Shown here: positions 48,151 to 64,000 of the stretch, one piece after another | Numbering within the stretch: the stretch's first letter is position 1 | Layout: every line of letters starts with the position of its first letter | Origin: Candidatus Pacearchaeota archaeon | GTDB taxonomy: Archaea; Nanobdellota; Nanobdellia; Pacearchaeales; GW2011-AR1 | Reading direction: 5' to 3' | DNA: 64,000 bases | Assembly: GCA_023139205.1 (NCBI GenBank) | Contig: JAGLOA010000002.1 | Coordinates: 27,530 to 91,529 of the forward strand | Program-made: the position numbers and the translations under genes | Notes under the pieces: generated by a model | What the model was told of the DNA's origin: nothing | Seen by the model: the letters and a program-made list of their open reading frames with translations, nothing else | The model's database searches: none

Positions 48151-48210
48151 CTCACTCATCCAAATTAAATATGAAATTAAATTTAAATGAAGGAATTAAA
48201 GGAGTTGTAA

Positions 48211-51200
48211 ATGGGAGATAATTTGCAATCTATTTTAGAAGAAGAAAAAATTAATTTTCCAAAAGCAGTAAGAAAAAGAAATAATCAAGTAGCTGAATTT
48301 GATCCAAGTAAAATTAGTGATGCTATTTCTTATGCATTTGAAAGTGTTGGGATTCATGATAAACAAAAATCAGAACAGGTTACAATAGAAACTTTGAAGA
48401 TGCTTTCTGGAAATGGGAATATGCCTAATGTAGATGAAATTAATGAATTAAATGTTAAAGCCTTAGAAAAATTAGGGCATCATAATGTTGCCAAATCTTT
48501 TGAACAATATGCTAAAAAAAGAAGAGAGGTTAGAGTTTTAGGTTCTGGAGGGGGAGGCAATACTACTGATTCTTTTTTAATGGTTTCTTCTATTTCTCAT
48601 GATTCTTCTTCTCCATGGAACAGGGAAAAGATTAGGGATTCTTTAATTAAAGAAGCAAATGTTGATTACAAAACCGCCACACATGTTGCAAAATCAGTTG
48701 AGAATAAATTAATTACATCAAAATACCCCTCTATAACAACTGATTTTATAAGGGAGATAGCAAAAATAGAATTGATAGATAGAGGATATCATAATTCTGC
48801 AGAGATGTATACTAATTTTAGTATTCCAAGAACTGATTTAGAAAAAATGATTTTAGATAAAAACGATGAAAATAGTAATATTCAAGGCAATAATCCAGAG
48901 GCAGTTAATTTTACTTTAGCAGGGATAATTGGAAAAAAATATGCCCTTAGCAAAATTTTCAGTAAAGATGTTGCAAAAGCCCATTCAGATGGTAGCTTAC
49001 ATCTCCATGATTTAGATATGCCAACAAGATTTTATTGTTCTGCACATTCTTTATCATACTTAGAAAAATTTGGATTAAAATTAGATAATCTGCAGACTTC
49101 TTCATCACCTCCAAAACACACAGAAACATTAACAGGACACTTAAATACTTTTTTTGCGGCTATGGAGGCATATTATGCAGGAGCTTTAGGGGTTGGATAT
49201 TTTAATATTATGTATGCTCCTTTAATTCAATCTGATTTAGAAAAAGAAGGAGAGAAAAGGATTGGAATTTTAAAAAACCAAATTAAAAAGATTAAAGAAA
49301 ATTTTACAAAGTCAAAAGTATTGACAAAAAATTTAGATGATATCTTAACACAAGAGGAAGAAAATATTTTAAGATTTGAAAAAAATCCTATGTCTATTTT
49401 ATCTGATAAAGAAATTGATGGATTTATGAAACAAAGAGGACAAGAAGCAATATATGCTGCTTCACAAAATGCATTTTCAAGAGGGGGACAAACTCTTTTC
49501 ATAGATTTTAATATTCATACTGGAGTTCCAGATTATTTAAAAAATACTCCTGCAATTCTTCCTGGAGGAAAATATGGCATTAAAAGAAATAATAAAACAG
49601 TTTTTTTAGAAGAAAAAAAATTAAAAGAAAAAACTGCTTCTGGGTATAATTTAATTGAATTAATTGATCCTAAAACTAAGAAAACTTTAATGAAAGAGAG
49701 GATAGAAAATAAAGAACTTATGCAAGACTGGTTTTTAGAAAAAGGAGAAAGTTCAATAACTTATAGAGATTATGATAAAATTTCAAAAAGATTTACTAAA
49801 AATTTGTTAAAGGTTTGGGGAGATGGGGATGAGAATGGTCAGCCTTTTGCGTTTCCTAAATGTGATTTGCATATTGATAAAGATACTTTTAAAGATCCAG
49901 AACAAAAAGAAATTCTTGAACAAGCGTGTAAAGTTGCAAGTGAAAATGGATCCACTTATTTTGTTTTTGACAGGGATGAAGTTTCTTTATCAGCATGTTG
50001 CAGATTAAGAACAAAGGTAGAAGATAATTATGTTTTAAAACATCCAGAGTCTATGAGATTTTGCGGATTTCAAAATGTTACAATTAATCTTCCTCAAGCA
50101 GCATATAGAACTACAAGGAATAATAAAAAGAATTTAGAGGGATTTTTAGAAGAAGTTGATAAAACAATGGATTTAGCAGTTAAAGCACATTTGCAAAAAA
50201 AAGGATTTATAGAATCTCTTCAGAAAAAGGGATTACCTCAATGGCAGACTGGACAAAAAAGTTTAGATGGACAGCCATATATTGATACAAATAAAGCAAC
50301 ATATATTTTAGGATTAATTGGATTAAATGAAGCTGTGCAGTGTTTGACTGGGAAAGAACTTCATGAGATGGATAATAAGGAATTTAAAGATATTGCATTA
50401 AAAACAGTTGCACATATGAATATAAAATCAAAAGAATATGAAAAGAAACATGGATTGAAATTTTCTTTAGAAGAAAGTCCTGCTGAATCTGCTTCAAGAA
50501 GACTTAGTAAAACAGACTTAGTAAATTATTCTGAATCAAAGGAATTTATTAGAGGAAGTATTGAAAAAGATCAAACTTATTATTCTAATTCTATTCATCC
50601 AAGGGCAGATGCTCCTATAAGCTTAATTGAAAGAATAGAACTACAGGGGAAATTTCATTCTGCAATTGAATCTGGAGCAATTACTCATGCATTTATTGGG
50701 GAAGAAAAACCAGATCCTCTTAGCATATATAGTTTAGTTAAAAAATCTTTTGAGAATACTCAAACTGCTCAGTTAACAATAAGCCCGGAATATACTTCCT
50801 GCAGAGATTGTGGAAAATTAAACCGGGGGCTGATAAAAGAATGTAAAAAGTGTGGGAATGATGATCCAGACACTTTGAAAGGGATGACAAGGATTGTGGG
50901 GTATTACAGTTTAATTGATAACTGGAATGAATCAAAATTAGAGGAATTAAAAGCAAGAGAAAGAGGAAATTATTCTTTGAAAAATTCTAAATTAGAAATG
51001 AAAATTCCTGAATTGGAAAATCCTTATAAGGGGATTACAGCAATAAGTATTGGGAAAAGTAATTGTCCTTTATGTGAAGATTTACAGTCAGCAATGAAAT
51101 ACAGAGGATTAGTAAAGAAATATGGAGAAGAATTTAATATTATTGGATATAAAGCAGATACTGAAGAAGGGTTGACAAATGCTATGTTAGCAAATGTGAA

Positions 51201-51351
51201 TTTATCTCAGTTGCCAGCATTAATTGTTCTGGATAAAAACTCAAATGAAATTTACAGAGGAAGCACAATAGGAAGTAATGGGAAAACAATTCCAATAAAT
51301 ACAAAGGAAGTAGAAGATTCTATAAAAAATTATTTAGAATTAAATAAATAA
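48211..51351 (+). CDS. nrdD: anaerobic ribonucleoside-triphosphate reductase NrdD (class III) with N-terminal ATP-cone(s) and a C-terminal glutaredoxin/NrdH-like domain
   Basis: ATP-cone KAVRKRNNQVAEFDPSKISDAISYAF plus a second cone-like segment. Glycyl-radical region TRIVGYYS preceded by the CRDCG…CKKCG zinc ribbon. C-terminal roughly 110 aa contain SNCPLCEDL (CPxC) and QLPALIVLD (cis-Pro region) of a thioredoxin fold. 1046 aa. Confidence 0.9.
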   Translation: MGDNLQSILEEEKINFPKAVRKRNNQVAEFDPSKISDAISYAFESVGIHDKQKSEQVTIETLKMLSGNGNMPNVDEINELNVKALEKLGHHNVAKSFEQYAKKRREVRVLGSGGGGNTTDSFLMVSSISHDSSSPWNREKIRDSLIKEANVDYKTATHVAKSVENKLITSKYPSITTDFIREIAKIELIDRGYHNSAEMYTNFSIPRTDLEKMILDKNDENSNIQGNNPEAVNFTLAGIIGKKYALSKIFSKDVAKAHSDGSLHLHDLDMPTRFYCSAHSLSYLEKFGLKLDNLQTSSSPPKHTETLTGHLNTFFAAMEAYYAGALGVGYFNIMYAPLIQSDLEKEGEKRIGILKNQIKKIKENFTKSKVLTKNLDDILTQEEENILRFEKNPMSILSDKEIDGFMKQRGQEAIYAASQNAFSRGGQTLFIDFNIHTGVPDYLKNTPAILPGGKYGIKRNNKTVFLEEKKLKEKTASGYNLIELIDPKTKKTLMKERIENKELMQDWFLEKGESSITYRDYDKISKRFTKNLLKVWGDGDENGQPFAFPKCDLHIDKDTFKDPEQKEILEQACKVASENGSTYFVFDRDEVSLSACCRLRTKVEDNYVLKHPESMRFCGFQNVTINLPQAAYRTTRNNKKNLEGFLEEVDKTMDLAVKAHLQKKGFIESLQKKGLPQWQTGQKSLDGQPYIDTNKATYILGLIGLNEAVQCLTGKELHEMDNKEFKDIALKTVAHMNIKSKEYEKKHGLKFSLEESPAESASRRLSKTDLVNYSESKEFIRGSIEKDQTYYSNSIHPRADAPISLIERIELQGKFHSAIESGAITHAFIGEEKPDPLSIYSLVKKSFENTQTAQLTISPEYTSCRDCGKLNRGLIKECKKCGNDDPDTLKGMTRIVGYYSLIDNWNESKLEELKARERGNYSLKNSKLEMKIPELENPYKGITAISIGKSNCPLCEDLQSAMKYRGLVKKYGEEFNIIGYKADTEEGLTNAMLANVNLSQLPALIVLDKNSNEIYRGSTIGSNGKTIPINTKEVEDSIKNYLELNK

Positions 51352-51352
51352 A

Positions 51353-52084
51353 ATGGATATTGCAGTTATTTATCATCAATCTCTTAAAGATTATCCTGGA
51401 AAGGTTTCTGAAGTAGTTTTTACGCCTAATTGTAATTATAAATGTCCTGCGTGTCATGCTAAAGAAATTTTAGATAGTAAAGAAAAAATAGATGAAAAAG
51501 AATTTTTTAATTATCTTGATTCTGGGAAGAAGTGGATTGATGGAGTTGTTTTATGCGGAGGAGAACCAACTTTAGAAAAAGATTTAATAGATTTTACAGA
51601 GAAATTAAAAAAAAGAGACTTAGCAGTAAAATTAGATACTAATGGGAGCAACCCAAAAGTTTTAGAAAAATTATTAGATGAAAAATTAATTGATTATGTT
51701 GCAATGGATGTTAAGGGACCTAAAAGTCTTTATTCTAAAATTATTGGGAAAGAAAAAGCAAATGTAAAAGATATTGAAGACTCAATGAAAATTGTTCAGG
51801 ATTTTCCAAATTATGAATTTAGGACAACTATTGCTCCTGTTCCAAATGGTAACTGGACATATTTTATGAATGTTAAAGATGTGGTTGATATGGCAAAATG
51901 GATTGTTAATGTTACAGGAGGAAATAAACACAAACACTATCTTCAAAAATTTGTTCCAAGAGAAAACGGGCTTCTTGATTCAAGATTAGAAAAATTTCCT
52001 GAAACTCCTGAAAAATTATTAAAAGAGATTAAAAAAGAAATAATTAAATATCTGCCCAATTGTGAAATAAGAGATGAAGATTAA
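51353..52084 (+). CDS. nrdG: anaerobic RNR activating enzyme NrdG (radical SAM)
   Basis: CNYKCPACH CxxxCxxC radical-SAM motif. GGEPTL glycine-rich SAM-binding motif. Confidence 0.8.
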   Translation: MDIAVIYHQSLKDYPGKVSEVVFTPNCNYKCPACHAKEILDSKEKIDEKEFFNYLDSGKKWIDGVVLCGGEPTLEKDLIDFTEKLKKRDLAVKLDTNGSNPKVLEKLLDEKLIDYVAMDVKGPKSLYSKIIGKEKANVKDIEDSMKIVQDFPNYEFRTTIAPVPNGNWTYFMNVKDVVDMAKWIVNVTGGNKHKHYLQKFVPRENGLLDSRLEKFPETPEKLLKEIKKEIIKYLPNCEIRDED

Positions 52085-52125
52085 AGTATAATAATTTTTA
52101 TAAATGAATAAAAGAATAAACTAAG

Positions 52126-52554
52126 ATGGTCAAGATTAAAATAAAAAAAATAAATCCTGATGCAATTATTCCAAGATATGCTCACGAAGGTGATGCAGGA
52201 ATGGATTTGTGTTCTGTTGAAGAGTATGAATTAAAACCAATGGAGAGCAGAATAATCAAAACCGGGTTGCAAGTTGAAATTCCGGAAAAATATTTTGGTT
52301 CTATTCGGGATAGATCAGGTTTGGCTGCTAAAAATTATATTCACACTCTTGCAGGAGTTGTTGATTCTCATTATAGGGGAGAGGTTGGGGTGGTATTAAT
52401 TAATTTAGGAAAAGAAGAATTTAAAATAAAGAAATATGACAGGATTGCCCAGATGTTGATTCAGCCTGTTGAAAGAGTTGGGATTGTGAAAGTTGAAAAT
52501 CTTTCTGAAACTATAAGAGGAGAAGGCGGGTTTGGAAGTACTGGTGTGCAATAA
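52126..52554 (+). CDS. dut: dUTP diphosphatase (trimeric dUTPase)
   Basis: AGVVDSHYRGEVGVVLINLG (motif 3) and C-terminal RGEGGFGSTG (motif 5). Confidence 0.8.
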   Translation: MVKIKIKKINPDAIIPRYAHEGDAGMDLCSVEEYELKPMESRIIKTGLQVEIPEKYFGSIRDRSGLAAKNYIHTLAGVVDSHYRGEVGVVLINLGKEEFKIKKYDRIAQMLIQPVERVGIVKVENLSETIRGEGGFGSTGVQ

Positions 52555-52588
52555 AAATCTTTATAAATTTAGTTAATTCTTAAAAATA

Positions 52589-52915
52589 ATGGTAAATGAA
52601 GATAAAGTTCCTGAACTGACAAATAATGAATTTGAAGATTTTATTAAAGAAGGAATTGTTTTAGTTGATTTTTTTGCAGAATGGTGTATGCCTTGTTTAA
52701 TGATGACTCCGATAATTGATGAGTTAAGTGGGAAATTTAAAGGGAAAATAAAATTTTGCAAAATTAATGTTGGAGAAAATCAGGAACTTGCACAAAAATT
52801 TAATGTTAGTTCTATTCCAAATTTTACTCTTTTAAAAGACAGAGAAATTATTGAGCAATTTATTGGTTCAATGTCTTCTGAAAAATTTGAAGAGAAATTG
52901 AAAGAGTTTGTATAA
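52589..52915 (+). CDS. trxA: thioredoxin
   Basis: AEWCMPC active site (CxxC) in a 108-aa Trx fold. Confidence 0.8.
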   Translation: MVNEDKVPELTNNEFEDFIKEGIVLVDFFAEWCMPCLMMTPIIDELSGKFKGKIKFCKINVGENQELAQKFNVSSIPNFTLLKDREIIEQFIGSMSSEKFEEKLKEFV

Positions 52916-52920
52916 TCAAT

Positions 52921-53268
52921 ATGGAATCAGTTATGTATCTTTTTGCAAACAAAAGCATCAAAATGAATTCTGGTAAACTAGCTGTACAAATTTCTCATGC
53001 CGCAGTAAAATCATATATTAATAGTAAAAATGATATAAGGGATTTTTGGGATAGAGGATCATATGTTAAAATATTATTATCAGCAAAAAATTCCACTGAA
53101 TTAATAAAAATAAAACATTCGCTTGAAAAAATTGGACTTTCATCAGGATTAATAATTGACGAAGGAAGAACTGAAATAAAACCAAATACAATTACAGCAT
53201 TGGGTGTCGAGATTGTTGATAAAAAAAGATATGAAGATTTTTTCAAAAAATATCAATTATATAGATAA
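52921..53268 (+). CDS. pth2: peptidyl-tRNA hydrolase, archaeal/eukaryal type (Pth2)
   Basis: 115 aa. SGKLAVQISHAAV and the C-terminal region match Pth2. Confidence 0.85.
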   Translation: MESVMYLFANKSIKMNSGKLAVQISHAAVKSYINSKNDIRDFWDRGSYVKILLSAKNSTELIKIKHSLEKIGLSSGLIIDEGRTEIKPNTITALGVEIVDKKRYEDFFKKYQLYR

Positions 53269-53393: not shown

Positions 53394-53520
53394 GGCTCCG
53401 TAGCTCAGCCTGGTTAGAGCACTGGACTTTTACGCCGAAAAAATCTCTTTGCGTACTTCGCACAGGAACAAAATTGGTGAAGCAATCCAGGTGTCGAGGG
53501 TTCGAATCCCTTCGGGGCCA
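53394..53520 (+). tRNA. tRNA-Lys (anticodon TTT) with a 52-nt intron (53433..53484) after position 37
   Basis: Acceptor GGCTCCG/CGGGGCC, D arm GCTC-AGCCTGGTTA-GAGC, anticodon stem CTGGA/TCCAG, loop CTTTTA|intron|A, T arm GAGGG-TTCGAAT-CCCTT, discriminator A. Confidence 0.7.
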
Positions 53521-53655: not shown

Positions 53656-53886
53656 ATGCATATTCTCCAATCAAAACATTCTAAACTCAGTGAAAAAGAT
53701 TCACAAGAACTTTTAGAGAGTCTTAATATTTCTAAATCTCAATTACCAAAAATTCTTTCAACAGACCCAAATTTACCTGAAGATTGTAATGTTGGGGATA
53801 TAATTAAAATAGAAAGGAAAAAACAACCTACAACCTCTGATTTAGAGGAAGAGAAAGTTTCTCCTTATTACAGGGTTGTTGTATAA
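53656..53886 (+). CDS. rpoH: RNA polymerase subunit H (Rpb5 homologue)
   Basis: LPKILSTDPNLPEDCNVGDIIKIERK…YYRVV matches the Rpb5 C-terminal domain. Its stop overlaps the rpoB start. Confidence 0.8.
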   Translation: MHILQSKHSKLSEKDSQELLESLNISKSQLPKILSTDPNLPEDCNVGDIIKIERKKQPTTSDLEEEKVSPYYRVVV

Positions 53887-56800
53887 AATGAAAAACCAAC
53901 ATTTAATTGTAAAAAAATATCTTAAAGAACACTCTTTAGTTGAATCAAATATTACTTCTTTTAATGAATTCATTGAACACAGAATGCAAAAAATTGTTGA
54001 TGAAATTTCTGAGACAATTAACAATGAAGAATTTGAAATTACTTTAGGAAAAATAAATGTTGGTGAACCACGAGTTATAGAAGCTGATGGAAGCTCTTCT
54101 TTGGTGATGCCTTATGAAACAAGATTAAGAAACCTTACTTATTCTGCACCTGTTACTATGGAAATAACAGTTAAAAAAGATGACCAAATTGATTCTGAAA
54201 ATGTTGAGATCGGAAGAATTCCTGTAATGGTAAAGAGCAAAGTTTGTAATACCAATGGTATGTCAAAAGAGGAATTAATTCAGAGTTATAATGACCCCTT
54301 AGATCCAGGAGGATATTTTATAATCAGAGGAAATGAAAGAGTAATGGTTATGGCAGAAGACCTGGCAGAAAACCGACCTTTTATTGAAGATATTAAAGGA
54401 AATTTAGTTTTAAAATTATTTTCATTAAGAGGAACATACAGAATCCCGACATTAATTTCAGAAAGCAAAGAAGGATTGTTTGAACTTTCATTTAGCAGAT
54501 TTAAAGATCTTCCAGCAATTGTTATTTTAAAAGCATTGGGAATGACAAAAGAGTCAGACATTGCACAATATTTAGGAAAAGAAACAGATAGTGTTATTGT
54601 TAATCTTTATGAATTTGTAAACTTAGCAACAAAGGAAGATGCAATGATGTATATTGCTGAACAATCAAATTTACAGGGAACAAAAAAAGAAATTTTAGAC
54701 AGAGTAAAACAAAGAATTGATTCTTATCTTCTTCCTCATATTGGACAAAAAAAAGAAGACAGAATAAAAAAAGCAGTTACTTTATGTAAATTGATAAAAC
54801 AATTTTTAATTGCAAAAGAAAATCCTGAACTAAGAACAGATAAAGACCACTATGCAAATAAAAGAGTCAGACTTTCAGGGGATTTGTTAGCTACTTTATT
54901 TAGAGTTAATTTAAGCATCTTACTTAGAGATATTCAATATTCATTACAAAAATCTTCTAAAAGAAGAAAATTCTTTTCTATAAAATTAATTGCTAAATCT
55001 ACATTATTTTCTCACAGAGTTGAATCAGCAATTGCAACAGGAAGCTGGACAGGAGAAAGAAGCGGGATTACGCAAAATATGGATAAGACAAATTATCTTG
55101 CAGTTATTTCACAGCTTCAAAGAGTTTCAAGTATGCTGGCTAGTGAACAGGAAAATTTCTTAGCAAGAACTCTTCACCCAACACATTACGGAAGATTTTG
55201 TCCAATAGAAACTCCAGAAGGAACTGAAATTGGTCTTAGAAAAAATTTGGCAATTTTAAGCAAGGTTTCTACAAGAGTTGATTTAGATGAAGACAAATTC
55301 TTAAAAGATCTTGAAACAGAAGGACTTAACAAAGAAGGAACTGGAAAAATAGATGTTTTCTTTAACGGGAGATTTATCGGAAGTGTGGAAGAAGCTGAAG
55401 AATTTGTTCAAAAAATAAGAGAAAAAAGAAGAGAAGGGAAACTTCCAATTCAAATGAATGTCAGGAAGGATTTTTCTTTTGGGATGGTTTTAATTTCAAC
55501 AGAGCCAGGAAGAGTATTAAGACCTTTAATAATTGTAGAAAATGGGACTTCAAAATTAAAAAATGAACATTTAATTCAATTAGAACAAGACGAAATTAAA
55601 TGGAATGATTTAATTAAAGAAGGTGTGATTGAATATCTTGATGCATCTGAAGAAGAAAATGCTCTAGTTTCGTTATATGAAGAAGAAGTTACTTCAAAAA
55701 ACACTCATCTGGAAATTGATCCTATGGATTTATTTGGAGTTATTACAAGTCTTGTTCCTTATGGAAATCATGACCAGAGTTCAAGGTTAAACAGGGGGAG
55801 TAAAACTCAAAAACAGGCTTTAGGGATTTATTCTGCTAATTATTTATGCAGGCTTGATACAGATGTAAGTATTCTTCAATATCCTCAAAAGCCAATTGTA
55901 AGAAGTTTTGTTTATGACACTCTTGACACTTATCCTGCCGGGCAAAATTTAACTGTTGCAATTATGACTTATGAAGGTTATAATATGGAAGATGCTCTGG
56001 TATTTAATAAAGGAAGTTTAGACAGAGGTGTTGGAAGAAGTTTTTATTTTAGACCTTATTCTGCAGTAGAAATGAATTATGCCGGAGGATTAAGAGATGA
56101 AATTGTTATTCCAGATAAAGATACTACTGGATATAAAACAGAAGCAAGTTATAAATTCCTGGAAAATGATGGAATTGTTTACCCTGAAGCAGACATTGAA
56201 AACAGCGAGGTTTTAATTGGCAAGACATCTCCTCCAAAATTTTTATCAGAAGCCAGAGAAATTTCAGTGAGAACTAAAAAAGAATCAAGTGTAACAATGA
56301 GACAAGAAGAAAAAGGAATTGTTGAATCTGTTTTTGTGACTGAAGATAGTCAGGGAAATAAAATTGTTCAGATAAAAACAAGAAATCAAAGAATCCCTGA
56401 ATTAGGGGACAAATTCGCTACTGCTCATGGTCAGAAAGGAGTTATCGGAGCAATAATTCCTGAAGAAGATATTCCATTTACTTCAAGAGGAATGAAACCA
56501 GATGTGTTATTTAATCCACATGGTCTGCCAAGCAGAATGACTGTTGGATATTTAATGGAATTACTTGCCGGAAAAGTTGGGTGCTTGAAAGGAGAAGTTG
56601 TTGACGGAACTTCATTTTCAGGGGAAAGCAAAAAAGAATTAGAAAATCAATTACAGGGTTTAGGATTTAGATACGACGGAAAAGAAACAATGTATAGCGG
56701 AATTACAGGAAAAAGAATGACTGCTAAAATCTTTGTAGGAAATTTGTATTATCTTAAGTTAAAATATATGGTAGGGAATAAATTACATGGAAGAGCTTCT

Positions 56801-57136
56801 GGAAAAGTTGCATTATTAACAAGACAGCCAATTGAAGGTAGGTCAAGAGGAGGAGCTTTAAGATTAGGGGAAATGGAACAGCAGGCATTAGTTGCTCACG
56901 GAGCTTCTTTATTATTAAAAGAAAGATATGATTCAGATAAAGTTGTGTTGCCAATTTGTTCAAAATGCGGAGCAATTGGAATTGATGACAACATAAAGAA
57001 CAAGGTTTATTGTCCACTTTGCAGCAGTGAAGATATTGAACCAATTGAAATTTCATATGCATTTAAATTATTACTTGAAGAATTACAAGGATTGCATATT
57101 CATACAAAATTTGAATTAAAAAATAAATACGAATAA
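53876..57136 (+). CDS. rpoB: RNA polymerase subunit B (unsplit)
   Basis: 1086 aa. GQKGVIGAI…, NPHGLPSRMTVG and the C-terminal zinc ribbon CSKCG…CPLCSS. Confidence 0.95.
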   Translation: MLYKMKNQHLIVKKYLKEHSLVESNITSFNEFIEHRMQKIVDEISETINNEEFEITLGKINVGEPRVIEADGSSSLVMPYETRLRNLTYSAPVTMEITVKKDDQIDSENVEIGRIPVMVKSKVCNTNGMSKEELIQSYNDPLDPGGYFIIRGNERVMVMAEDLAENRPFIEDIKGNLVLKLFSLRGTYRIPTLISESKEGLFELSFSRFKDLPAIVILKALGMTKESDIAQYLGKETDSVIVNLYEFVNLATKEDAMMYIAEQSNLQGTKKEILDRVKQRIDSYLLPHIGQKKEDRIKKAVTLCKLIKQFLIAKENPELRTDKDHYANKRVRLSGDLLATLFRVNLSILLRDIQYSLQKSSKRRKFFSIKLIAKSTLFSHRVESAIATGSWTGERSGITQNMDKTNYLAVISQLQRVSSMLASEQENFLARTLHPTHYGRFCPIETPEGTEIGLRKNLAILSKVSTRVDLDEDKFLKDLETEGLNKEGTGKIDVFFNGRFIGSVEEAEEFVQKIREKRREGKLPIQMNVRKDFSFGMVLISTEPGRVLRPLIIVENGTSKLKNEHLIQLEQDEIKWNDLIKEGVIEYLDASEEENALVSLYEEEVTSKNTHLEIDPMDLFGVITSLVPYGNHDQSSRLNRGSKTQKQALGIYSANYLCRLDTDVSILQYPQKPIVRSFVYDTLDTYPAGQNLTVAIMTYEGYNMEDALVFNKGSLDRGVGRSFYFRPYSAVEMNYAGGLRDEIVIPDKDTTGYKTEASYKFLENDGIVYPEADIENSEVLIGKTSPPKFLSEAREISVRTKKESSVTMRQEEKGIVESVFVTEDSQGNKIVQIKTRNQRIPELGDKFATAHGQKGVIGAIIPEEDIPFTSRGMKPDVLFNPHGLPSRMTVGYLMELLAGKVGCLKGEVVDGTSFSGESKKELENQLQGLGFRYDGKETMYSGITGKRMTAKIFVGNLYYLKLKYMVGNKLHGRASGKVALLTRQPIEGRSRGGALRLGEMEQQALVAHGASLLLKERYDSDKVVLPICSKCGAIGIDDNIKNKVYCPLCSSEDIEPIEISYAFKLLLEELQGLHIHTKFELKNKYE

Positions 57137-57138
57137 AA

Positions 57139-60100
57139 ATGATGAATAAAATAGTAAAAAAGAAAGTAAAGGAAATAAAATTTTCTCTTCTTAGTCCAGA
57201 CAAAATCAAAAAACTTTCAACTGCAAAAATAGTAACTCCTGAATTATATAATATTGACGGGTATCCAGTAGATGGGGGATTAATGGATTTAAGGCTTGGT
57301 GCAATAGATCCTGGTGTAAGATGTAGGACTTGCGGAGGAAGATTAAAAGAATGTTTAGGACATCCAGGAAGTATTGATTTAGCGAGACCAATAATGCATT
57401 TAAAATATATTCCTTTGGTAGAACTTGGATTAAGATGTTTTTGTCAGGAATGTAAAAAATTAATGTTGGCGGATAAAGATCTGGAAAAATATACTCCAAG
57501 TCAAAGAGCAAAAAAAGCAAAGGATTCTAAAAAATGTCCTCATTGCGGTGCTGCAAATGAAAAAATTAAGTTAGAGAAACCAACAAACTTTTACCAAGGA
57601 AAAATAAGATTATTTCCTACAGAGATTAGAGAAAAATTAGTTAATATTAAAGATGAAGAATTAGAAAAAATAGGGATAAATCCTGTAAGCTGCAGACCTG
57701 AGTGGGGTATTTTAACTACTCTTTTAGTTCCTCCTGTAACAATAAGACCAAGTATTATTTTAGAATCTGGTGAAAGAAGCGAGGATGATTTAACACATAA
57801 ACTTTCTGATATTATAAGAGCTAATCAAAGACTTTGGGAAAATTTAAATGCAGGTGCTCCGGAAGTTATTATTGAAGATTTATGGGACCTTTTACAATTT
57901 CATGTTACAACTTTCTTTGATAATACTGTTGCTAAAATTCCTCCTGCAAGACATAGAAGCGGTCAGCCATTAAAAACAATCACAGAAAGAATCAAAGGTA
58001 AAGAAGGAAGAATCAGGAAAAACCTTGCTGGTAAAAGAGTAAATTACTCAGGAAGAACTGTAATTTCTCCTGATCCGTTTATAGAAATAAATGAAATTGG
58101 GGTTCCTCATGAAATTGCAACAGTGGTTACTCTGGCTGAAACTGTTACTGATTTAAATATTGAGAAATTAAAAAAATTAGTTGAGAGAGGTGACAAATAT
58201 CCAGGAGCAAATTATATTATAAGGCCTGATGGAAAAAGAAAGAAAATAACTCCTGAACTTAAAGAAGAAGTTATTAATGAACTTGTTCCAGGCTATAAAG
58301 TTGAAAGACATTTACAGGAAGGAGATGTTGTTTTGTTTAACAGACATCCAAGTCTACACAGAGGAAGTTTAATGGCTCACTTTGTGAAAGTTCTTCCAGG
58401 AAGAACATTTAGATTACATCCTGCTGCAGCTTATCCTTATAATGCGGATTTTGACGGAGATGAAATGAATATTCACTCTCCTCAGACAGAAGAAGCAAGA
58501 GCAGAAGCAAAAATTTTACTTGATGTTAAAAAGAATTTAATTTCTCCTAAAAACAACACAAATCTTATTGGGTGTATAGGGGATGCTGTTACAGGAAATT
58601 ATTTATTAGGATTAAATGAATTTTCAAAAGAATCTGCAAATCAAATGATGTATCAAGCTGGAATTGATTGTGAATTTTCAAAGAAAACAATATCAGGAAC
58701 AGAATTATTCTCAGAGATTCTTCCAAAAGCAGATTTCTCAAATGAGTCTATAAAAATAAAAGACGGGAAAATTCTTGAGGGTGAAATAGACAAAACTACT
58801 TTTGGAAGTGAGGACGGAGATTTAATCAAAGAACTTGATAAGGTGGTTGGAAGAGATGAAACTTTTGAAATAATTAAAAAAGCATTTAAACTTGGAACAA
58901 ACTATTTATCAGGAAGAGGGATAACTATTTCTGTTGAAGATTTGGATTTAGATGAAAAAGTTGTACGGGCAGGAGAAGAGATTATTAAAAAAGCTGAAAA
59001 GAAAACAGAAGAAATAATTGATTCTTATGACCAGGGAACTCTTGAAAGAATTCCAGGTAAAACAGAAAAAGAATCCAGAGAAATAAGAATTCTTAAGGTT
59101 TTAAATGAGGTTAGAACCAAGATAGGGGATATTGTAAAGAAAGAATTTCCTAAAAATAATCCAGTAAATTATATGATTAAATCAGGTGGCGGAGGAAATA
59201 TGCTGAATATTACTCAGATGGCTTGTTGTGTTGGTCAGCAGGCATTATGGGGAAAGAGAATTGAAATTGGTTACACCGAAAGAACATTATCTTTTTTTGA
59301 AAAAGGGGATTTGTCTCCAAGGGCAAGAGGATTTATTTCAAGTCCATTCATAAAAGGATTAAGACCAGATGAATTTTTCTTTGGAGCTGTTACAGGAAGA
59401 GACTCGCTTATGGATACTGCATTAAGAACTCCTAAATCAGGTTACTTATATAGAAGATTAGCTAATGCATTTCAGGATATTAGAATTGAATATGACGGAA
59501 CAGTAAGGGATAGCAATAATGAGATAATTCAATATAAATATGGAGATGATGGAAAAGATATTTCGCAGCTTCATAAAGATGGACAAATATGTGCTGGTGA
59601 AGCAATTGGGATTATTACTGCACAATCATTTGGAGAACCTTCAACACAAATGGCATTAAATGTATTTCATTTTGCAGGTGTTGCAGAAATGCAGGTTACT
59701 GCAGGACTTCCAAGAATTATTGAAATCTTTGATGCAAGAAAAAAACCTTCTTCTCCGAAAATGGAGATTTATTTAAATAAAGAATATAATGATGAGAAAA
59801 ATGCTAAAACTTTTGCTGAAAAAATTAAAGAAGTTACTTTAAAAGAAATTGCTTCTGAGATTAATCTTGATTTTAGCGGAAAAAATATTGAAATTAAAAT
59901 TAGTAAAAAAGGATTAAAGCAGACTCACACCACAATAAAAGTTGTTGTTGAAAGATTAAATGACCTTAAATTTAGTGCTAAAGAAAAAGGAGATTCAATT
60001 GTATTAAATGCTTCTGAGTTTAGCTTTAAAGAAATTTATCAGCTTAAGGAAAAATTAAAGAAAACAATTATTTCGGGTGTTAAAGGAGTAAGTCAGGTTT

Positions 60101-60630
60101 TGATTGTTAAAAGAGAAAAAGATTTTGTGATAATTACTCTTGGTTCAAATCTGAAAAAGATAATTGATTTAAAGGAAGTTGATGAAGACAGGATTCTTTC
60201 AAATGATTTGCATGAGGTTGCAGGTGTTTTTGGAATTGAAGCTGCAAGACAATTAATAATTAATGAGATTTATGAAGTGATTAATTCACAGGGATTAAAT
60301 ATTGATATAAGACATCTTAAATTAGTTTCAGATGCAATGACAAATACTGGTGTCGTTAAAGGGGTTACAAGAATGGGAATTATAGCACAAAAATCTTCAA
60401 TCTTGGCAAGAGCTACTTTTGAAACTCCTGGAAAACAATTTGTAAATGCTTCAATAAAAGGAGGCGGGGACAGATTAGCAAGTGTTATAGAAAATATAAT
60501 TCTTAATCAGCCAGTGCCTGTTGGAACTGGGTTGCCTGGTCTTCTTGTTGAAGTTATTGGACCATTGTCTAAGAAAGATTCTGAAAAGAAAACAGCTAAA
60601 ACAGAAGTTGTTGAGAAAACTAATAAGTGA
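57139..60630 (+). CDS. rpoA: RNA polymerase subunit A with the A' and A'' portions fused in one ORF
   Basis: N-terminal zinc motifs. NADFDGDEMN catalytic loop. Bridge helix RDSLMDTALRTPKSGYLYRRL is followed in the same frame by the trigger-loop region AQSFGEPSTQMALNVFHFAGV and the A''-type C-terminus (…ATFETPGKQF…VPVGTGLPGL). 1163 aa. Confidence 0.9.
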   Translation: MMNKIVKKKVKEIKFSLLSPDKIKKLSTAKIVTPELYNIDGYPVDGGLMDLRLGAIDPGVRCRTCGGRLKECLGHPGSIDLARPIMHLKYIPLVELGLRCFCQECKKLMLADKDLEKYTPSQRAKKAKDSKKCPHCGAANEKIKLEKPTNFYQGKIRLFPTEIREKLVNIKDEELEKIGINPVSCRPEWGILTTLLVPPVTIRPSIILESGERSEDDLTHKLSDIIRANQRLWENLNAGAPEVIIEDLWDLLQFHVTTFFDNTVAKIPPARHRSGQPLKTITERIKGKEGRIRKNLAGKRVNYSGRTVISPDPFIEINEIGVPHEIATVVTLAETVTDLNIEKLKKLVERGDKYPGANYIIRPDGKRKKITPELKEEVINELVPGYKVERHLQEGDVVLFNRHPSLHRGSLMAHFVKVLPGRTFRLHPAAAYPYNADFDGDEMNIHSPQTEEARAEAKILLDVKKNLISPKNNTNLIGCIGDAVTGNYLLGLNEFSKESANQMMYQAGIDCEFSKKTISGTELFSEILPKADFSNESIKIKDGKILEGEIDKTTFGSEDGDLIKELDKVVGRDETFEIIKKAFKLGTNYLSGRGITISVEDLDLDEKVVRAGEEIIKKAEKKTEEIIDSYDQGTLERIPGKTEKESREIRILKVLNEVRTKIGDIVKKEFPKNNPVNYMIKSGGGGNMLNITQMACCVGQQALWGKRIEIGYTERTLSFFEKGDLSPRARGFISSPFIKGLRPDEFFFGAVTGRDSLMDTALRTPKSGYLYRRLANAFQDIRIEYDGTVRDSNNEIIQYKYGDDGKDISQLHKDGQICAGEAIGIITAQSFGEPSTQMALNVFHFAGVAEMQVTAGLPRIIEIFDARKKPSSPKMEIYLNKEYNDEKNAKTFAEKIKEVTLKEIASEINLDFSGKNIEIKISKKGLKQTHTTIKVVVERLNDLKFSAKEKGDSIVLNASEFSFKEIYQLKEKLKKTIISGVKGVSQVLIVKREKDFVIITLGSNLKKIIDLKEVDEDRILSNDLHEVAGVFGIEAARQLIINEIYEVINSQGLNIDIRHLKLVSDAMTNTGVVKGVTRMGIIAQKSSILARATFETPGKQFVNASIKGGGDRLASVIENIILNQPVPVGTGLPGLLVEVIGPLSKKDSEKKTAKTEVVEKTNK

Positions 60631-60647
60631 TTTTTTAGAAAACCTTA

Positions 60648-60683
60648 ATTTTTTTTAAATGAATTCTTACTTTATCTTTAAAA
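60648..60683. repeat. 36-bp direct repeat, copy 1 (ATTTTTTTTAAATGAATTCTTACTTTATCTTTAAAA)
   Basis: Exact match to 62521..62556 in the same orientation, 1873 bp apart. Confidence 0.8.
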
Positions 60684-60728
60684 CTGCAGCATAGAAATTT
60701 ATTTAAACTACAATTTACCCAGAAGTTT

Positions 60729-60941
60729 ATGGAAAAACTTGAAGAAAAAACTGAAGAATTTGTTGGAAAAACAAAGGCAATAAATAAAGATTTGGAGAAT
60801 AAAAACATAGAAGCGATAAAGAAATATACTTTGTTTGGAGAGCAATATCTTGAAAAGCAAGTACACACTGGTAAACAATCTATGAAATTTTCAGCAACAG
60901 TATGCACTTATAGAGGAGTACCCTTATTTGATGACTTTTAA
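60729..60941 (+). CDS. small ORF (70 aa) immediately upstream of the ATP-grasp gene, possible precursor peptide
   Basis: Ends …KFSATVCTYRGVPLFDDF. Same strand, 23 nt before the ATP-grasp start. Speculative. Confidence 0.25.
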   Translation: MEKLEEKTEEFVGKTKAINKDLENKNIEAIKKYTLFGEQYLEKQVHTGKQSMKFSATVCTYRGVPLFDDF

Positions 60942-60964
60942 ATTAGGGGGAATTTCTTTTTAAA

Positions 60965-61903
60965 ATGAAAAATGTGTTGATATTAACTTATGATGAAGAT
61001 CCTCATGCAGATTCAGTTAGTAAGTTCTTTGATAAAAAGGGTGTAGAATATTTTAGAGTTGTAACAGAGAATTTAGCAAAAGATTATAAAATAACATTCG
61101 AATCTAACGACTCTCTTTATAAAATTTCAAATAATGAAAAAAAGATATATCTTGATTCTTCTTGGAACATTTGGAATAGAAGGGTAATGAACCCAGATAA
61201 CAAAAAAAATATGCCTAAGTCTTTAATAGATATTGTAGTAGATGAATCTGAAAAAACTTGGGACGGATTACTTGCATCTCATAAAGGGAAAGTTGTAAAT
61301 AGACCCCAAAATCATTTTTATGCTAATAATAAAATAGACCAATTAAAATTTGCATCTGGTAAAATCAAAATCCCAGATACAATAGTCACAAATGACCCTT
61401 CTTGTGTTGAAGAATTTTACGAGAAACATAAGGGAAATATTTGCTTTAAACTACAAAAAGGGACTGTAATAGATGAAAAATTTATTTACACAAACAAAGT
61501 AACAAAAGAACAACTGAAAAATGTTGATTTAGTTTCAAAGCATCCTTGTTTATTTCAAGAATATGTTGACAAGGAATTTGAAGTGAGGGTGGTTGCAACA
61601 GACAAAAATATTACCGGGATAGCAATAGACTCACAAAATTCAGAAATCTCTAAGATAGATTTTAGAAGATATGATTTTGATAATGTAAAATATGAACATA
61701 TAAATTTGCCAGATAATGTGAAGGGATTTTGTTCTTCATTATTGAAAAATTATGGACTTCATTTTGGGGCATTGGACTTTATTTATTCAAAAGAAAGAGG
61801 ATATGTTTTTCTTGAATTAAACCCTAATGGACAATGGCTATGGTTAGAAGAAACATCTGGATATAATCTAACTAAGGAAGTTGCAGAAAATCTAATAAAT
61901 TAA
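60965..61903 (+). CDS. ATP-grasp family ligase (RimK / graspetide-maturase-like size)
   Basis: C-terminal GLHFGALDFIYSKERGYVFLELNPNGQW matches the ATP-grasp Mg/ATP-binding E-x-N loop. 312 aa with a pre-ATP-grasp N-domain. Confidence 0.65.
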   Translation: MKNVLILTYDEDPHADSVSKFFDKKGVEYFRVVTENLAKDYKITFESNDSLYKISNNEKKIYLDSSWNIWNRRVMNPDNKKNMPKSLIDIVVDESEKTWDGLLASHKGKVVNRPQNHFYANNKIDQLKFASGKIKIPDTIVTNDPSCVEEFYEKHKGNICFKLQKGTVIDEKFIYTNKVTKEQLKNVDLVSKHPCLFQEYVDKEFEVRVVATDKNITGIAIDSQNSEISKIDFRRYDFDNVKYEHINLPDNVKGFCSSLLKNYGLHFGALDFIYSKERGYVFLELNPNGQWLWLEETSGYNLTKEVAENLIN

Positions 61904-61904
61904 A

Positions 61905-62399
61905 ATGTTTAAAAATTTAGAAAATAAAATAAAAAATAAAGATTTAATTTTATTTGGAGAAGAACATGGAACAAAAGAAATCCCTGAATTTCTCTTTAAA
62001 TTTTTTTCTGAATTAGCCAAAGAAGAAGAATTTGATGTTTGTTTGGAAATACCAAAAGAGTTTCAAAATAATATAAAGGATTTTTTTAAGCAAAATGAAG
62101 GGGGTCTAAATACAAAAGGATATTTGAATTTAGTAAATGAACTTCAAAAATTAAACATAAAAATATTTTGTATTGATAGTTCAGATTATTCTTCTCAAAA
62201 CAAAAGAGAAAAAGAGATGGCAGAGAATATTCTCGAAGTTTTTAATAAAAAGACATTTGTTATTACAGGAAATATTCATGCTTGTATAAAAAAATTTTTA
62301 ATGTGTGAAATTAATATAATCCCTACTGGATTTTACCTTTCTGAAAAATTAAAAGATAAATTAGTCAGCATAGATCTTTCATTAGAATTAAAAAACTAG
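61905..62399 (+). CDS. Tiki/TraB/ChaN-superfamily-like protein
   Basis: LILFGEEHGTKE and VITGNIHA resemble the two GxxH motifs of the TraB/PrgY/Tiki/ChaN family. 164 aa. Start is 1 nt after the ATP-grasp stop. Confidence 0.4.
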   Translation: MFKNLENKIKNKDLILFGEEHGTKEIPEFLFKFFSELAKEEEFDVCLEIPKEFQNNIKDFFKQNEGGLNTKGYLNLVNELQKLNIKIFCIDSSDYSSQNKREKEMAENILEVFNKKTFVITGNIHACIKKFLMCEINIIPTGFYLSEKLKDKLVSIDLSLELKN

Positions 62400-62504
62400 A
62401 CAAAAAAAAGTTTATATTAGAAAAAGATTTGGATGAAAAAGAGAAGAAAATGACTGAAAAATTCACTCCAACTAAAGAATATAATTATTAAATAGTATCA
62501 AATT

Positions 62505-62735
62505 CTAAGAAAAAACTTTTATTTTTTTTAAATGAATTCTTACTTTATCTTTAAAATCTTTTTTTGAAAATCTTTTTTTTGTTAAAGCTGAACTGCTTTT
62601 TAATTGACTTTCTATTAACTCTTTTTGCTGTTTGAAAAATTTAGGGTTTTCTCTAAGTTTTTCTGCATAAAGCTCTATATAATCTAAATCTGTTTTAGGA
62701 ATTTGTTTTAATTTCATTTTTAATAATAGGTTCAT
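62505..62735 (-). CDS. small hypothetical ORF (76 aa) overlapping the 3' end of the NTase gene
   Basis: Overlaps 62695..63306 by 41 nt. Its 3' end lies inside the repeat. Coding status uncertain. Confidence 0.25.
   Translation of the reverse strand: MNLLLKMKLKQIPKTDLDYIELYAEKLRENPKFFKQQKELIESQLKSSSALTKKRFSKKDFKDKVRIHLKKIKVFS
62521..62556. repeat. 36-bp direct repeat, copy 2
   Basis: Identical to 60648..60683. On the minus strand it encodes the C-terminal FKDKVRIHLKK of small ORF 62505..62735. Confidence 0.8.
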
Positions 62736-63306
62736 ATTCTTTGAATTTTTCTTTTTTTATTATTTCTGAAAAGAAAGTTCTTAAATGTCTGGCATCTCCA
62801 ATATCTTTTTCTCCAGCTAAGATGATTTCTTTGTATAAAATCTCAAATTCTAATGGGGGAATTTTAAAGGCAAAATTCTGTATTTTTATTTTTTGGGGAT
62901 TATTTAATTCAAAATATTTTGCAGGCTTTGATTTATCAACTGATATAAATTCCATATTTGGAAACATTTCTCCTTCTTTTGCAAATCTTATACTATCTCC
63001 ATTTTCTATGTATCTCCACACTTCATCAAGAGTATCTCCCTGATAACACCAAAATTTATTTTTGAATAAATCTTCTAAAAGTAAAGCGAGTTTTGTTTTG
63101 TCTAATTTTGAAACCAAAACATCTACATCTTCTGTTCCTCTTGTTCTTCCAGTAGATATACTTACAAATCCACTTACAATTAAATATTCGGAATGTCTTT
63201 TTAAAACATCTATAAAATCTTTAACAAACAAGTCTAATTTTGTCAGTTCTCTATTGATAATTATAGTATTCTCTTTAATAGAATAAGCTTTGTTTTGGTT
63301 GCTCAT
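62695..63306 (-). CDS. minimal Pol-beta nucleotidyltransferase (MNT-like)
   Basis: SGFVSISTGRTRGTEDVDVLV is the GS-x9-DxD motif. 203 aa. Confidence 0.55.
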   Translation of the reverse strand: MSNQNKAYSIKENTIIINRELTKLDLFVKDFIDVLKRHSEYLIVSGFVSISTGRTRGTEDVDVLVSKLDKTKLALLLEDLFKNKFWCYQGDTLDEVWRYIENGDSIRFAKEGEMFPNMEFISVDKSKPAKYFELNNPQKIKIQNFAFKIPPLEFEILYKEIILAGEKDIGDARHLRTFFSEIIKKEKFKEYEPIIKNEIKTNS

Positions 63307-63378
63307 TTTTAATTAAGGGGGGAAGTTTTTAAGTAGTTTTTGTTTTTGGGAAGACTAATAAGTGATTTTTAAAAAAGA

Positions 63379-64000
63379 TTAATTTTCCAATAGCCATTTC
63401 CAGACAGGTTTAACAAATATTTTTTTATTGTCTTTTTGTAAATTGTATTCCTGGTCTTTAGTTAAAATAATTCCCTGTTTTAATTTGAATTCTTCTAAAG
63501 CAGTTGTTAATCCTCTAATTTCTCTTTCTTTATTTTCAGAAGTTAATTCCCAGCAAACCTGTATTGCCTGTATTATTTTTTTTTGTTTTGATAAAATAAA
63601 ATCACATTCATATTTATTTTCAAAATAATTTATTTCAAAATTTTCATTTATGTTATTAAAAACTAAATTTTCAAGGAGCCATCCTTTATCTTTTGTAAAT
63701 TTCAGAGAAATCACTGAAACAAATCCATTATCCAATACATATGGTTTTTTTTCAGATTTTATTTGTTTTTTTAAACTATAATCAAATTTATTTATTATTT
63801 GAATAAAATACGTTTCAATAAGATGGTTAATAAATTTCTTCGTGGTGTGCGGGCTTTTTATCCCCAATATTTTGTTTAGATTATTATAATTAAATTTGTT
63901 TGCCAGATTAGTTATCAGATATTGGTATAATTCTCTAAGCTGGATTATATTTTTAACATCATATCTTACAATTATATCTTTGTTTATTATATCCTCATAG
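63379..64000 (-). CDS. AAA+ ATPase of the COG1373/DUF4143 type, C-terminal part; the 5' end runs off the window
   Basis: The frame stays open from 64000 down to 63379. …LNKILGIKSPHTTKKFINHLIETYFIQII… (HTH-like) and …NKYECDFIL… resemble the DUF4143 C-terminal domain of COG1373 ATPases. The listed ORF start (63867) is a TTG inside this longer open frame. Confidence 0.5.
   Translation of the reverse strand, partial: YEDIINKDIIVRYDVKNIIQLRELYQYLITNLANKFNYNNLNKILGIKSPHTTKKFINHLIETYFIQIINKFDYSLKKQIKSEKKPYVLDNGFVSVISLKFTKDKGWLLENLVFNNINENFEINYFENKYECDFILSKQKKIIQAIQVCWELTSENKEREIRGLTTALEEFKLKQGIILTKDQEYNLQKDNKKIFVKPVWKWLLEN

Follow-up and report, generated by a model that had tools for sequence, protein, structure and literature searches.

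The question raised by this locus is whether the uninterrupted rpoA frame found in the window, the 64,000-nucleotide stretch of DNA from a Candidatus Pacearchaeota archaeon analyzed in the present study, reflects an artefact of assembly, an ancestral unsplit gene, a gene acquired from elsewhere or the joining of two genes that were once separate. The initial annotation stated that archaeal subunit A is normally encoded as two genes, A' and A''. The two-gene form is indeed the canonical one in Sulfolobus and Thermococcus, but "normally" proved too strong because in Thaum-, Kor-, Aig- and Bathyarchaeota an unsplit RpoA is the usual state (PMC5484517), and proteins with Micrarchaeota or Altiarchaeota labels are often unsplit as well. 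A fusion in Pacearchaeota is real and has already been known since 2017, when Da Cunha et al., in PLoS Genet, referred in a sentence of their main text to "a secondary fusion in Pacearchaeaota" for RNA polymerase subunit A (PMC5484517).

The rpoA reading frame and its conservation

The bridge helix and the trigger loop lie, as had been claimed, in one uninterrupted 1163-aa frame, the translation of which contains no internal stops (Table 1). The frame starts 2 nt past the rpoB stop codon, and the gene order rpoH-rpoB-rpoA, with rpoH first in the cluster, is the context expected for an archaeal RpoA. A gene for rpoH is also called in loci L081-L082, and the operon of one relative reads rpoH-rpoB-rpoA(fused)-nusA-S12-S7-EF2. 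The gene upstream, rpoB, had likewise been described as unsplit and is found as one ORF, with profile matches of the B'' model to aa 6-485 and of the B' model to aa 494-1084; its start is a TTG at 53876 in the ORF list, and the 1082-aa gene call begins at an ATG. Its B''/B' junction is an end-to-end join at which nothing is lost compared with the split B'' and B' of two loci labelled Woesearchaeota/Nanoarchaeota (L003 and L004). Because rpoB is also joined, and seamlessly so, four genes of these relatives (B'', B', A' and A'') are represented by two here. A scan of 53.2-61 kb for bacterial-type promoters and terminators gave counts equal to the shuffled expectation, the bacterial models being uninformative for an archaeon.

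Table 1. Features of the rpoH-rpoB-rpoA cluster, in coordinates of the window
Feature	Position	Strand	Basis
rpoH (Rpo5/Rpb5 C-terminal domain)	53656..53886	+	76-aa ORF; PF01191 RNA_pol_Rpb5_C, E=2.1e-14
rpoB, B''+B' in one ORF, 1082 aa from ATG	53888..57136	+	Rpb2 domains 1-7; 1082-aa gene call
rpoA (Rpo1), single ATG-initiated 1163-aa ORF	57139..60630	+	ORF list, translation, Pfam, NCBIfam
A'-equivalent part (aa 1-815): clamp, active site, pore, funnel, bridge helix	57139..59583	+	NF006336; alignments
Catalytic metal-binding motif NADFDGD (aa 435-441)	58441..58461	+	Translation
Bridge-helix motif RDSLMDTALRTPKSGYLYRRL (aa 754-774)	59398..59460	+	Translation; matches Rpb1 bridge-helix region, residue 827 onward
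Probable fusion junction KDISQLHKDGQICA (aa 806-819), breakpoint ~aa 816	59554..59595	+	Rpb1 alignment, spacer lengths
A''-equivalent part (aa 815-1137, 323 aa)	59581..60549	+	Thermococcus/Sulfolobus A'' alignments; TIGR02389
Trigger-loop motif GEPSTQMALNVFHFAGV (aa 832-848)	59632..59682	+	Translation; within match to Rpb1 1058-1120
Lys/Glu-rich C-terminal tail (aa 1138-1163)	60550..60627	+	Beyond A'' models

Rpb1 domains 1-5 (PF04997, PF00623, PF04983, PF05000 and PF04998) occur in RpoA in canonical order, all scoring above the Pfam cutoffs. The NCBIfam A' model NF006336 matches aa 5-814 with its positions 4-865 of 883, and the A'' model TIGR02389 matches aa 807-1132 with its positions 31-361 of 367. 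When aligned with archaeal A'/A'' pairs, the protein was matched by Thermococcus and Sulfolobus chains on both sides of the junction: aa 701-808 align with residues 772-879 of the 906-residue Thermococcus A', and aa 815-1137 align with residues 56-382 of the 391-residue Thermococcus A'' and with residues 58-389 of the 395-residue Sulfolobus A''. As the alignments of the A'' part begin at residue 56 or 58, the protein lacks the N-terminal ~55 residues of a separately encoded A'', and the earlier estimate of a short A'' part of about 300 aa agrees with the 323 aa found. Among 58 relatives, D437, D439, G440 and D441 of the NADFDGD motif are invariant, and N435, A436 and F438 are nearly so; the bridge-helix and trigger-loop motifs are also invariant or nearly so. 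These features identify the protein as the largest subunit of an archaeal RNA polymerase, and its strict conservation across the clade lends indirect support to the prediction that it assembles into an active polymerase as a single chain. AlphaFold2 modeling of the 1163-aa protein, with 58 close relatives aligned, gave a model too poor to interpret (mean pLDDT 51, pTM 0.31), in which pLDDT is below 50 near the fusion junction.

The fused form is universal and invariant in junction length across the clade. The best 120 homologues collected from NCBI, JGI, ENA and Logan (77-100% identity) are all full length, at 1148-1176 aa, and the spacer from the bridge helix to the trigger-loop anchor is exactly 53 residues, with a conserved sequence, in all 116 that could be scored by motif pattern, where stricter regexes missed 22 of the 120 and a looser pattern scored 116. 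A representative with 65% identity (P0121) is also fused and has the 53-aa spacer, and rpoA is fused in loci L001 and L002. The identical 1163-aa protein is present on six contigs, the three of which that were read belong to three separate ENA metagenome assemblies (ERZ23498471, ERZ23498475 and ERZ23498528), and in NCBI, where it is labelled "Candidatus Pacearchaeota archaeon"; the labels of close relatives are a mixture of Pacearchaeota, Woesearchaeota and Nanoarchaeota. No pair of adjacent genes with a stop and a start between the bridge helix and the trigger loop was found, either in the window or in the independent assemblies. Six short, highly similar proteins (P0122, P0125, P0144, P0181, P0246 and P0260), considered as free-standing A'' subunits within the fused clade, were rejected as fragments or chimeric gene calls.

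The junction and the missing segment

Judging from the alignments, A' and A'' are not joined end to end. In the alignment with yeast Rpb1, RpoA aa 760-815 correspond to Rpb1 827-882 and aa 817-879 correspond to Rpb1 1058-1120. About 65 residues held by split relatives, comprising the C-terminal tail of A' and ~46 residues from the N terminus of A'', are absent at the junction, and the site of this loss is the position of yeast Rpb1 883-1057, the foot domain. The 53-aa spacer compares with 110-118 aa in the split L003 and L004 and with 125-131 aa in the unsplit TACK forms of Bathyarchaeota, Korarchaeota, Nitrososphaerales and Geothermarchaeota. The shortness of the A'' part would then reflect a deletion of ~65 residues across the old gene boundary, not a truncation of function.

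Origin of the single gene

The matches listed from a scan of a genome collection were mostly from Euryarchaeota, together with some bacterial beta' genes, and the useful DPANN loci there were L001-L004 and L030. Among the matches listed, L003 and L004 are the nearest two-gene relatives, at about 48-53% identity, and both keep the ~65 residues. Identities to their split genes are 52-53% for A', 49-53% for A'', 44-45% for B'' and 55% for B', versus 43-47%, 38-43%, 33-40% and 43-48%, respectively, for all other compared forms, split or unsplit; no compared unsplit form is nearer to this RpoA or RpoB. The trees were constructed by distance (NJ) only, with bootstrap values of 16-66% at deep nodes. 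In the full-length tree (1117 columns), the split L003 and L004 plus the fused group are supported at 100%, as is the fused group alone. Rather than nesting among the split relatives, the fused clade forms their sister group, and an unsplit rpoA is also found in several neighboring DPANN branches, so that an unsplit state may have been ancestral. The A''-only tree recovers the fused clade at 100% and its neighbors at 4-15%, and the full-length tree is therefore needed for their placement. Bootstrap support for a group of all fused forms is 0/100, and the same value was obtained for Pacearchaeota plus Micrarchaeota.

Because the nearest two-gene relatives keep the segment, have a split rpoB and form the sister group at 100%, the best reading is a lineage-wide secondary fusion, in which the single rpoA gene probably arose from a split ancestor when an in-frame deletion removed the boundary between A' and A''. 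The lineage-specific fusion that the initial annotation offered as one interpretation is supported by the clade-wide invariant form, by the split sister group and by the secondary fusion mentioned in the published text (PMC5484517). A single in-frame deletion of ~200 nt over the gene boundary would have turned the ancestral A'/A'' pair into one gene, removing ~20 codons from the end of A', the A' stop, the A'' start and ~46 codons from the beginning of A''. The predicted product would be a single catalytic chain of ~130 kDa, with A' and A'' joined by a 14-residue connector (aa 806-819) and without the small surface module located at the position of the eukaryotic Rpb1 foot domain. The lost segment might have served mainly to hold the two chains together and have become dispensable after joining. 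It is the direction of the change, i.e., fusion and not retention of an unsplit gene, and the one-step mechanism of deletion that we infer here.

The other explanations differ in what they would require. The possibility that a stop or frameshift near 59.5-59.7 kb was overlooked, so that two genuine genes appear as one, is only an a priori concern, raised by the metagenomic source of the window. Nothing was found in its favor, and it is refuted in practice by the identical ORF in separate assemblies, by the full length of all of the best 120 homologues and by the constant junction; a hidden stop/start pair at the split point is also excluded by the absence of the very ~65 residues that would hold it. 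Replacement of the gene by horizontal transfer from a lineage already unsplit, such as TACK, Micrarchaeota or Altiarchaeota, could draw on the short-junction fused forms that are present in other DPANN-type lineages. Such a transfer is, however, highly improbable, given that identity of the A' and A'' parts is 49-53% with L003/L004 versus 38-44% with the Bathyarchaeota and Nitrososphaerales forms and ~39-45% with the Micrarchaeota-labelled P0190 and P0241, that the trees place the fused clade with L003/L004 and give no bootstrap support to a grouping of fused forms, that junction sequences and lengths are unlike between lineages, and that the gene resides in its native rpoH-rpoB-rpoA context.

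A gene that was never split deserves more weight, although we consider it unlikely. Under this reading, the lineage would have inherited an unsplit rpoA of the kind seen in Thaum-, Kor- and Bathyarchaeota and then lost the foot-like segment, and the two-gene sisters of the Woesearchaeota type would be derived. The wide occurrence of unsplit RpoA in Bathyarchaeota, Korarchaeota, Nitrososphaerales and some Asgard archaea, and in many Micrarchaeota- and Altiarchaeota-labelled proteins, is compatible with such a history, as are the sister position of the fused clade and a Micrarchaeota-labelled unsplit protein with a long junction of 119 aa (P0379). On the other hand, the A'/A'' break of L003 and L004 agrees with that of Euryarchaeota and Crenarchaeota in position, in the A' tail and in the A'' N-terminal motifs, and a second identical split is less likely than one deletion. 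In addition, every fused DPANN form is deleted exactly at the boundary, whereas all unsplit TACK forms keep a spacer of 125-132 aa, and rpoB offers a parallel, being split in L003 and L004 at the Methanothrix split site and joined here. The published analysis, in its sentence on the lineage, also calls the fusion secondary (PMC5484517).

Recurrence, significance and comparison with known systems

As far as can be judged from sequences, the unsplit character recurs among archaea. Short-junction fused RpoA is common in proteins labelled Micrarchaeota (junctions of 46-51 residues) and Altiarchaeota (57-64 residues), and one Nanohaloarchaeota-labelled protein has a junction of 61 residues; fused short-junction forms are found in at least three separate tree branches. 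Shortened junctions with a different length in each lineage are as expected from independent deletions spanning the boundary. One Micrarchaeota-labelled genome (L030) has two genes despite a short junction, which shows that shortening need not coincide with fusion. One possibility, to which we would give slightly less than even chances, is that split large subunits were joined repeatedly in small-genome archaea, i.e., in the Pacearchaeota clade, in Micrarchaeota- and Altiarchaeota-labelled lineages and in one Nanohaloarchaeota-labelled lineage, each time by an independent in-frame A'/A'' deletion that removed the foot-like module and left a minimal, single-chain "footless" Rpo1, with rpoB also re-joined in the Pacearchaeota clade. 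In the searchable literature, this pattern is represented by one sentence, on Pacearchaeota only.

If the single rpoA is a secondary fusion, the present case would show that the split character of RpoA can reverse, and the survey suggests more than one such reversal. Arguments on the archaeal root and on the placement of Asgard archaea have drawn on the split or unsplit state as a rare genomic character (PMC5484517, PMC3082918), and because this state seems reversible, care is needed when it is used at deep nodes. The fusion had also been proposed as an informative phylogenetic marker. This holds locally, where the invariant 53-residue junction cleanly marks the Pacearchaeota-type clade of tiny-genome DPANN archaea, but does not hold beyond it because short-junction fused forms occur in several branches. 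An archaeal polymerase appears able to do without the segment that lies where the eukaryotic enzyme has its foot domain, a point of interest for the engineering or reconstitution of minimal RNA polymerases; the basic understanding of transcription is unchanged by the fusion.

Among known systems, the Pacearchaeota fusion of Da Cunha et al. (PMC5484517) is alike in lineage label, in having A' and A'' on a single chain and in being read as derived, while its treatment in the main text, consisting of one sentence and a reference to figure S29, does not include the loss of ~65 residues at the junction, the unsplit state of rpoB or how far the fused clade extends. The RpoA proteins labelled Micrarchaeota, Norongarragalinales and Altiarchaeota are likewise encoded by one ORF, at 1110-1190 aa, with the junction shortened to 46-65 residues, but they are ~39-45% identical to this RpoA, have other junction sequences and lengths and are located elsewhere in the tree; some of them contain an intein. 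The A-type RpoA of TACK archaea (Thaumarchaeota, Korarchaeota, Aigarchaeota and Bathyarchaeota) is also a single ORF with Rpb1 domains 1-5 beside an unsplit rpoB, but it is 1266-1339 aa in length and has a long junction segment, and this RpoA is nearer in sequence to the split DPANN subunits than to any TACK RpoA.

All catalytic and structural regions align with the canonical split Rpo1N/Rpo1C known from the solved structures of Sulfolobus and Thermococcus, A' being matched up to residue ~855-879 and A'' from ~56-58 onward. The difference is that there is one chain instead of two, and that nothing corresponds to the ~25-aa C-terminal tail of A' or to the N-terminal ~55 aa of A''. Eukaryotic Rpb1 is also a single polypeptide and can be aligned directly with this RpoA in the bridge helix and the trigger loop; unlike Rpb1, this RpoA lacks a CTD. 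Where this RpoA has about one residue, however, Rpb1 holds 175 (883-1057), including W954, the site of the foot-domain allele rpo21-4 (PMC5389574).

The fused rpoA gene and its surroundings

The product of rpoA is predicted from its sequence to be a functional single-chain Rpo1. As the initial annotation had proposed, the gene forms one frame, whose translation has zero internal stops, and the two strings quoted there as the bridge helix and the trigger loop are both present in it, at residues 754-774 and 832-848, respectively. Pfam assigns Rpb1 domains 1-5, in order, while the NCBIfam equivalog for A' (NF006336, model positions 4-865 of 883) matches residues 5-814 and that for A'' (TIGR02389, positions 31-361 of 367) matches residues 807-1132. 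The accompanying claim that rpoB is unsplit also holds, because Rpb2 domains 1-7 (Pfam) and both the B'' and B' models (NCBIfam) match the same ORF.

The fused RpoA is real, conserved, and previously reported. NCBI lists the exact 1163-residue sequence under the name "DNA-directed RNA polymerase subunit A'" of Candidatus Pacearchaeota archaeon, and the identical protein is encoded on six contigs, three of which were read and proved to belong to three different ENA assemblies with the same gene neighborhood. In a search of 5.8 billion clusters, the best 120 homologs (from NCBI, JGI, ENA, and Logan) were all full length, at 1148-1176 residues and 77-100% identity. Their conserved junction reads YGDDG-x-D-[VI]-S-x-[LI]-H...PGEAIG, and all 116 of those scorable by a loose motif search have a spacer of exactly 53 residues between the last residue of the bridge-helix motif and the trigger-loop anchor. 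The NCBI copy, the separate assemblies, the full-length homologs, and the invariant spacer together rule out an assembly artifact.

Features of the polymerase gene region and elsewhere in the window, with the split locus L003 for comparison
Feature	Position	Strand	Remarks
rpoA	57139..60630	+	1163 aa, one frame from ATG (ORF list)
rpoB	53876..57136	+	1086-aa ORF immediately preceding rpoA (ORF list)
rpoH	53656..53886	+	76 aa, just upstream of rpoB ORF
70-aa ORF	60729..60941	+	first ORF after rpoA
ATP-grasp enzyme resembling MvdC/MvdD peptide maturases	60965..61903	+	TIGR04185 E=1.3e-62, below family cutoff
164-aa protein	61905..62399	+	faint ChaN/Tiki match
tRNA gene, 127 nt	53394..53520	+	Rfam, missed by ARAGORN; between PTH2 gene and rpoH
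tRNA gene, 147 nt	9948..10094	-	Rfam, missed by ARAGORN
Nucleotide-metabolism block, upstream of polymerase genes	47713..53268	+	NrdR-like regulator, anaerobic ribonucleotide reductase NrdD with radical-SAM activase, dUTPase, thioredoxin, peptidyl-tRNA hydrolase PTH2
Four genes B''-B'-A''-A' (L003)	L003 2806..10068		MAG H14-bin056_1, labeled Nanoarchaeota; A'' match 52%

The three ORFs directly 3' of rpoA (60729..62399, +), which have the same layout in the compared loci L081-L083, might form a gene cluster for a graspetide, a ring-forming peptide, in a DPANN archaeon. The nusA-S12-S7-EF2 block that follows rpoA in the fused relative L001 is absent from 60631..64000 of the window and from L081 13493..23492, which covers the 10 kb after rpoA; its place is taken by low-GC DNA (24% in 62-64 kb) that carries DUF4143 ATPases and Pol-beta-type nucleotidyltransferases. 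The two tRNA genes presumably contain introns.

The A'/A'' junction

The A' and A'' parts are not joined end to end. In alignments with solved structures, residues 701-808 correspond to positions 772-879 of the 906-residue Thermococcus A' and 750-854 of the 880-residue Sulfolobus A', and residues 815-1137 to positions 56-382 of the 391-residue Thermococcus A'' and 58-389 of the 395-residue Sulfolobus A''; therefore, about 25 residues at the C terminus of A' and about 55 at the N terminus of A'' have no counterpart. In the alignment with yeast Rpb1, residues 760-815 match 827-882 and residues 817-879 match 1058-1120, so that one residue occupies the site of 175 in Rpb1. The classical foot-domain allele rpo21-4 (W954) falls in that stretch, and the same publication characterizes the foot as poorly or not at all conserved in homologs from archaea and bacteria (PMC5389574).

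The spacer of 53 residues compares with 118 (56+62) in L004 (labeled Woesearchaeota) and 110 (51+59) in L003, the nearest split relatives, and with 125-131 in the unsplit forms of Bathy- and Korarchaeota, Nitrososphaerales, and Geothermarchaeota. Relative to L004, the protein tracks A' to YGDDG-KDIS and restarts just before PGEAIG of A''; the A''-equivalent part is short, as had been noted, because the A' tail of about 21 residues and the first 46 or so residues of A'' are missing. In rpoB the two parts meet end to end (…LETEGLNKEGTGK/IDVFFNGRFIG…), matching the B'' C terminus and B' N terminus of L003 and L004 with nothing lost.

The gene most likely arose through one in-frame deletion of some 200 nt spanning the A'/A'' boundary, with loss of the A' tail and stop codon together with the start codon and initial 46 or so codons of A''. 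The lost segment, in our view, may chiefly have tied the two chains together.

Derivation of the fused form

When 1.84 billion representatives were scanned, without a profile, with the A'' part as the query, the fused representatives P0121 (65%) and P0122 (63%) came at the top, followed by free-standing A'' proteins of 383-398 residues (47-54% identity) with the usual N-terminal extension of about 45-55 residues. Many free-standing A'' proteins (P0135, P0137, P0139, P0142, P0152, P0156, and others) carry N-terminal extensions of 150-500 residues unrelated to A', several of which start MAKKDT..AL..RG. and resemble a helix-hairpin-helix module. Three of the compared loci are labeled Woesearchaeota: L001 (A'' match 75%) has rpoH, unsplit rpoB, and fused rpoA; L002 (59%) has a fused rpoA on a partial contig; and L004 (48%) has the four genes B'', B', A', and A''. 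In L003, A'' lies directly upstream of A' with tight spacing. The A', A'', B'', and B' parts of the window genes are each nearest to the split genes of L003 and L004, and no unsplit form closer to any of the four was found among the forms compared. A neighbor-joining tree built from the full-length RpoA of 41 taxa (1117 columns, 200 bootstraps) gave 100% support to the fused clade and 100% to its union with L003 and L004, which, together with the literature, supports the initial reading of a lineage-specific A'/A'' fusion.

We infer that the fusion is the derived state, the polarity being left to inference since the fused clade is sister to its split relatives, not nested among them, and the deep nodes of the neighbor-joining trees are poorly supported. 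The sister position would also suit an unsplit rpoA ancestral to the lineage, but that polarity seems unlikely because L003 and L004 are split at the same canonical site as Euryarchaeota and Crenarchaeota, with the same motifs flanking it, because every fused DPANN form has a boundary deletion, of differing size, that the unsplit TACK forms never show, and because rpoB presents the split/joined pattern in parallel. Derivation by fusion also agrees with Da Cunha et al., who place "a secondary fusion" "in Pacearchaeaota" (PMC5484517), and the fused state of the lineage was thus already known.

Fused forms elsewhere and known polymerases

Short-junction single-gene RpoA is not restricted to the clade of the window. 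With P0190 as the query, about a hundred clusters (1110-1190 residues) labeled Micrarchaeota, Micrarchaeia, Norongarragalinales, or Altiarchaeota were retrieved; their spacers measure 46-51 and 57-65 residues, and some contain an intein in the A'' part. The Nanohaloarchaeota-labeled P0196 has a spacer of 61. Among Micrarchaeota-, Norongarragalinales-, and Altiarchaeota-labeled clusters (P0299-P0416), the single gene with a shortened junction (46-65) is the common form, and several intein-bearing members reach 1600-1680 residues. The Micrarchaeota-, Altiarchaeota-, and Nanohaloarchaeota-labeled fused forms branch separately from the window clade in the full-length tree, and monophyly of all fused forms was recovered in none of 100 bootstraps of the A'' tree. 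Recurrent fusion by deletion in several archaeal lineages with small genomes, yielding a footless single-chain Rpo1, is a tentative reading to which we would give slightly less than an even chance. The Micrarchaeota-labeled P0379 is unsplit, yet has a long junction (119), and a genome with the same label (L030 1..1628) carries A' and A'' as two genes separated by 5 nt, yet with a short junction (40+20 residues); the latter is either a fused gene split anew or a frameshift error.

A text search of the literature found no other description of a Pacearchaeota RNA polymerase fusion, and in the literature searched there was none of the deletion at the A'/A'' junction, of the rpoB join that goes with it, or of the recurrence in Micrarchaeota and Altiarchaeota. 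A 2026 review gives one Rpo1 accession, PIN77526.1, for its "Woesearchaeota" model, and that accession belongs to the 65% fused cluster; a 2026 preprint reports B as split in most DPANN. Da Cunha et al. distinguish polymerases of A-type from A'A''-type (PMC5484517). The split A'/A'' of Sulfolobus and Thermococcus keeps the A' tail and the A'' N terminus, which have no counterpart in the window protein. RpoA in Thaum-, Kor-, and Aigarchaeota, termed a "fusion" by Nunoura et al. (PMC3082918), is a single gene like that of the window, whereas the unsplit TACK RpoA has no boundary deletion and the window rpoA has one.
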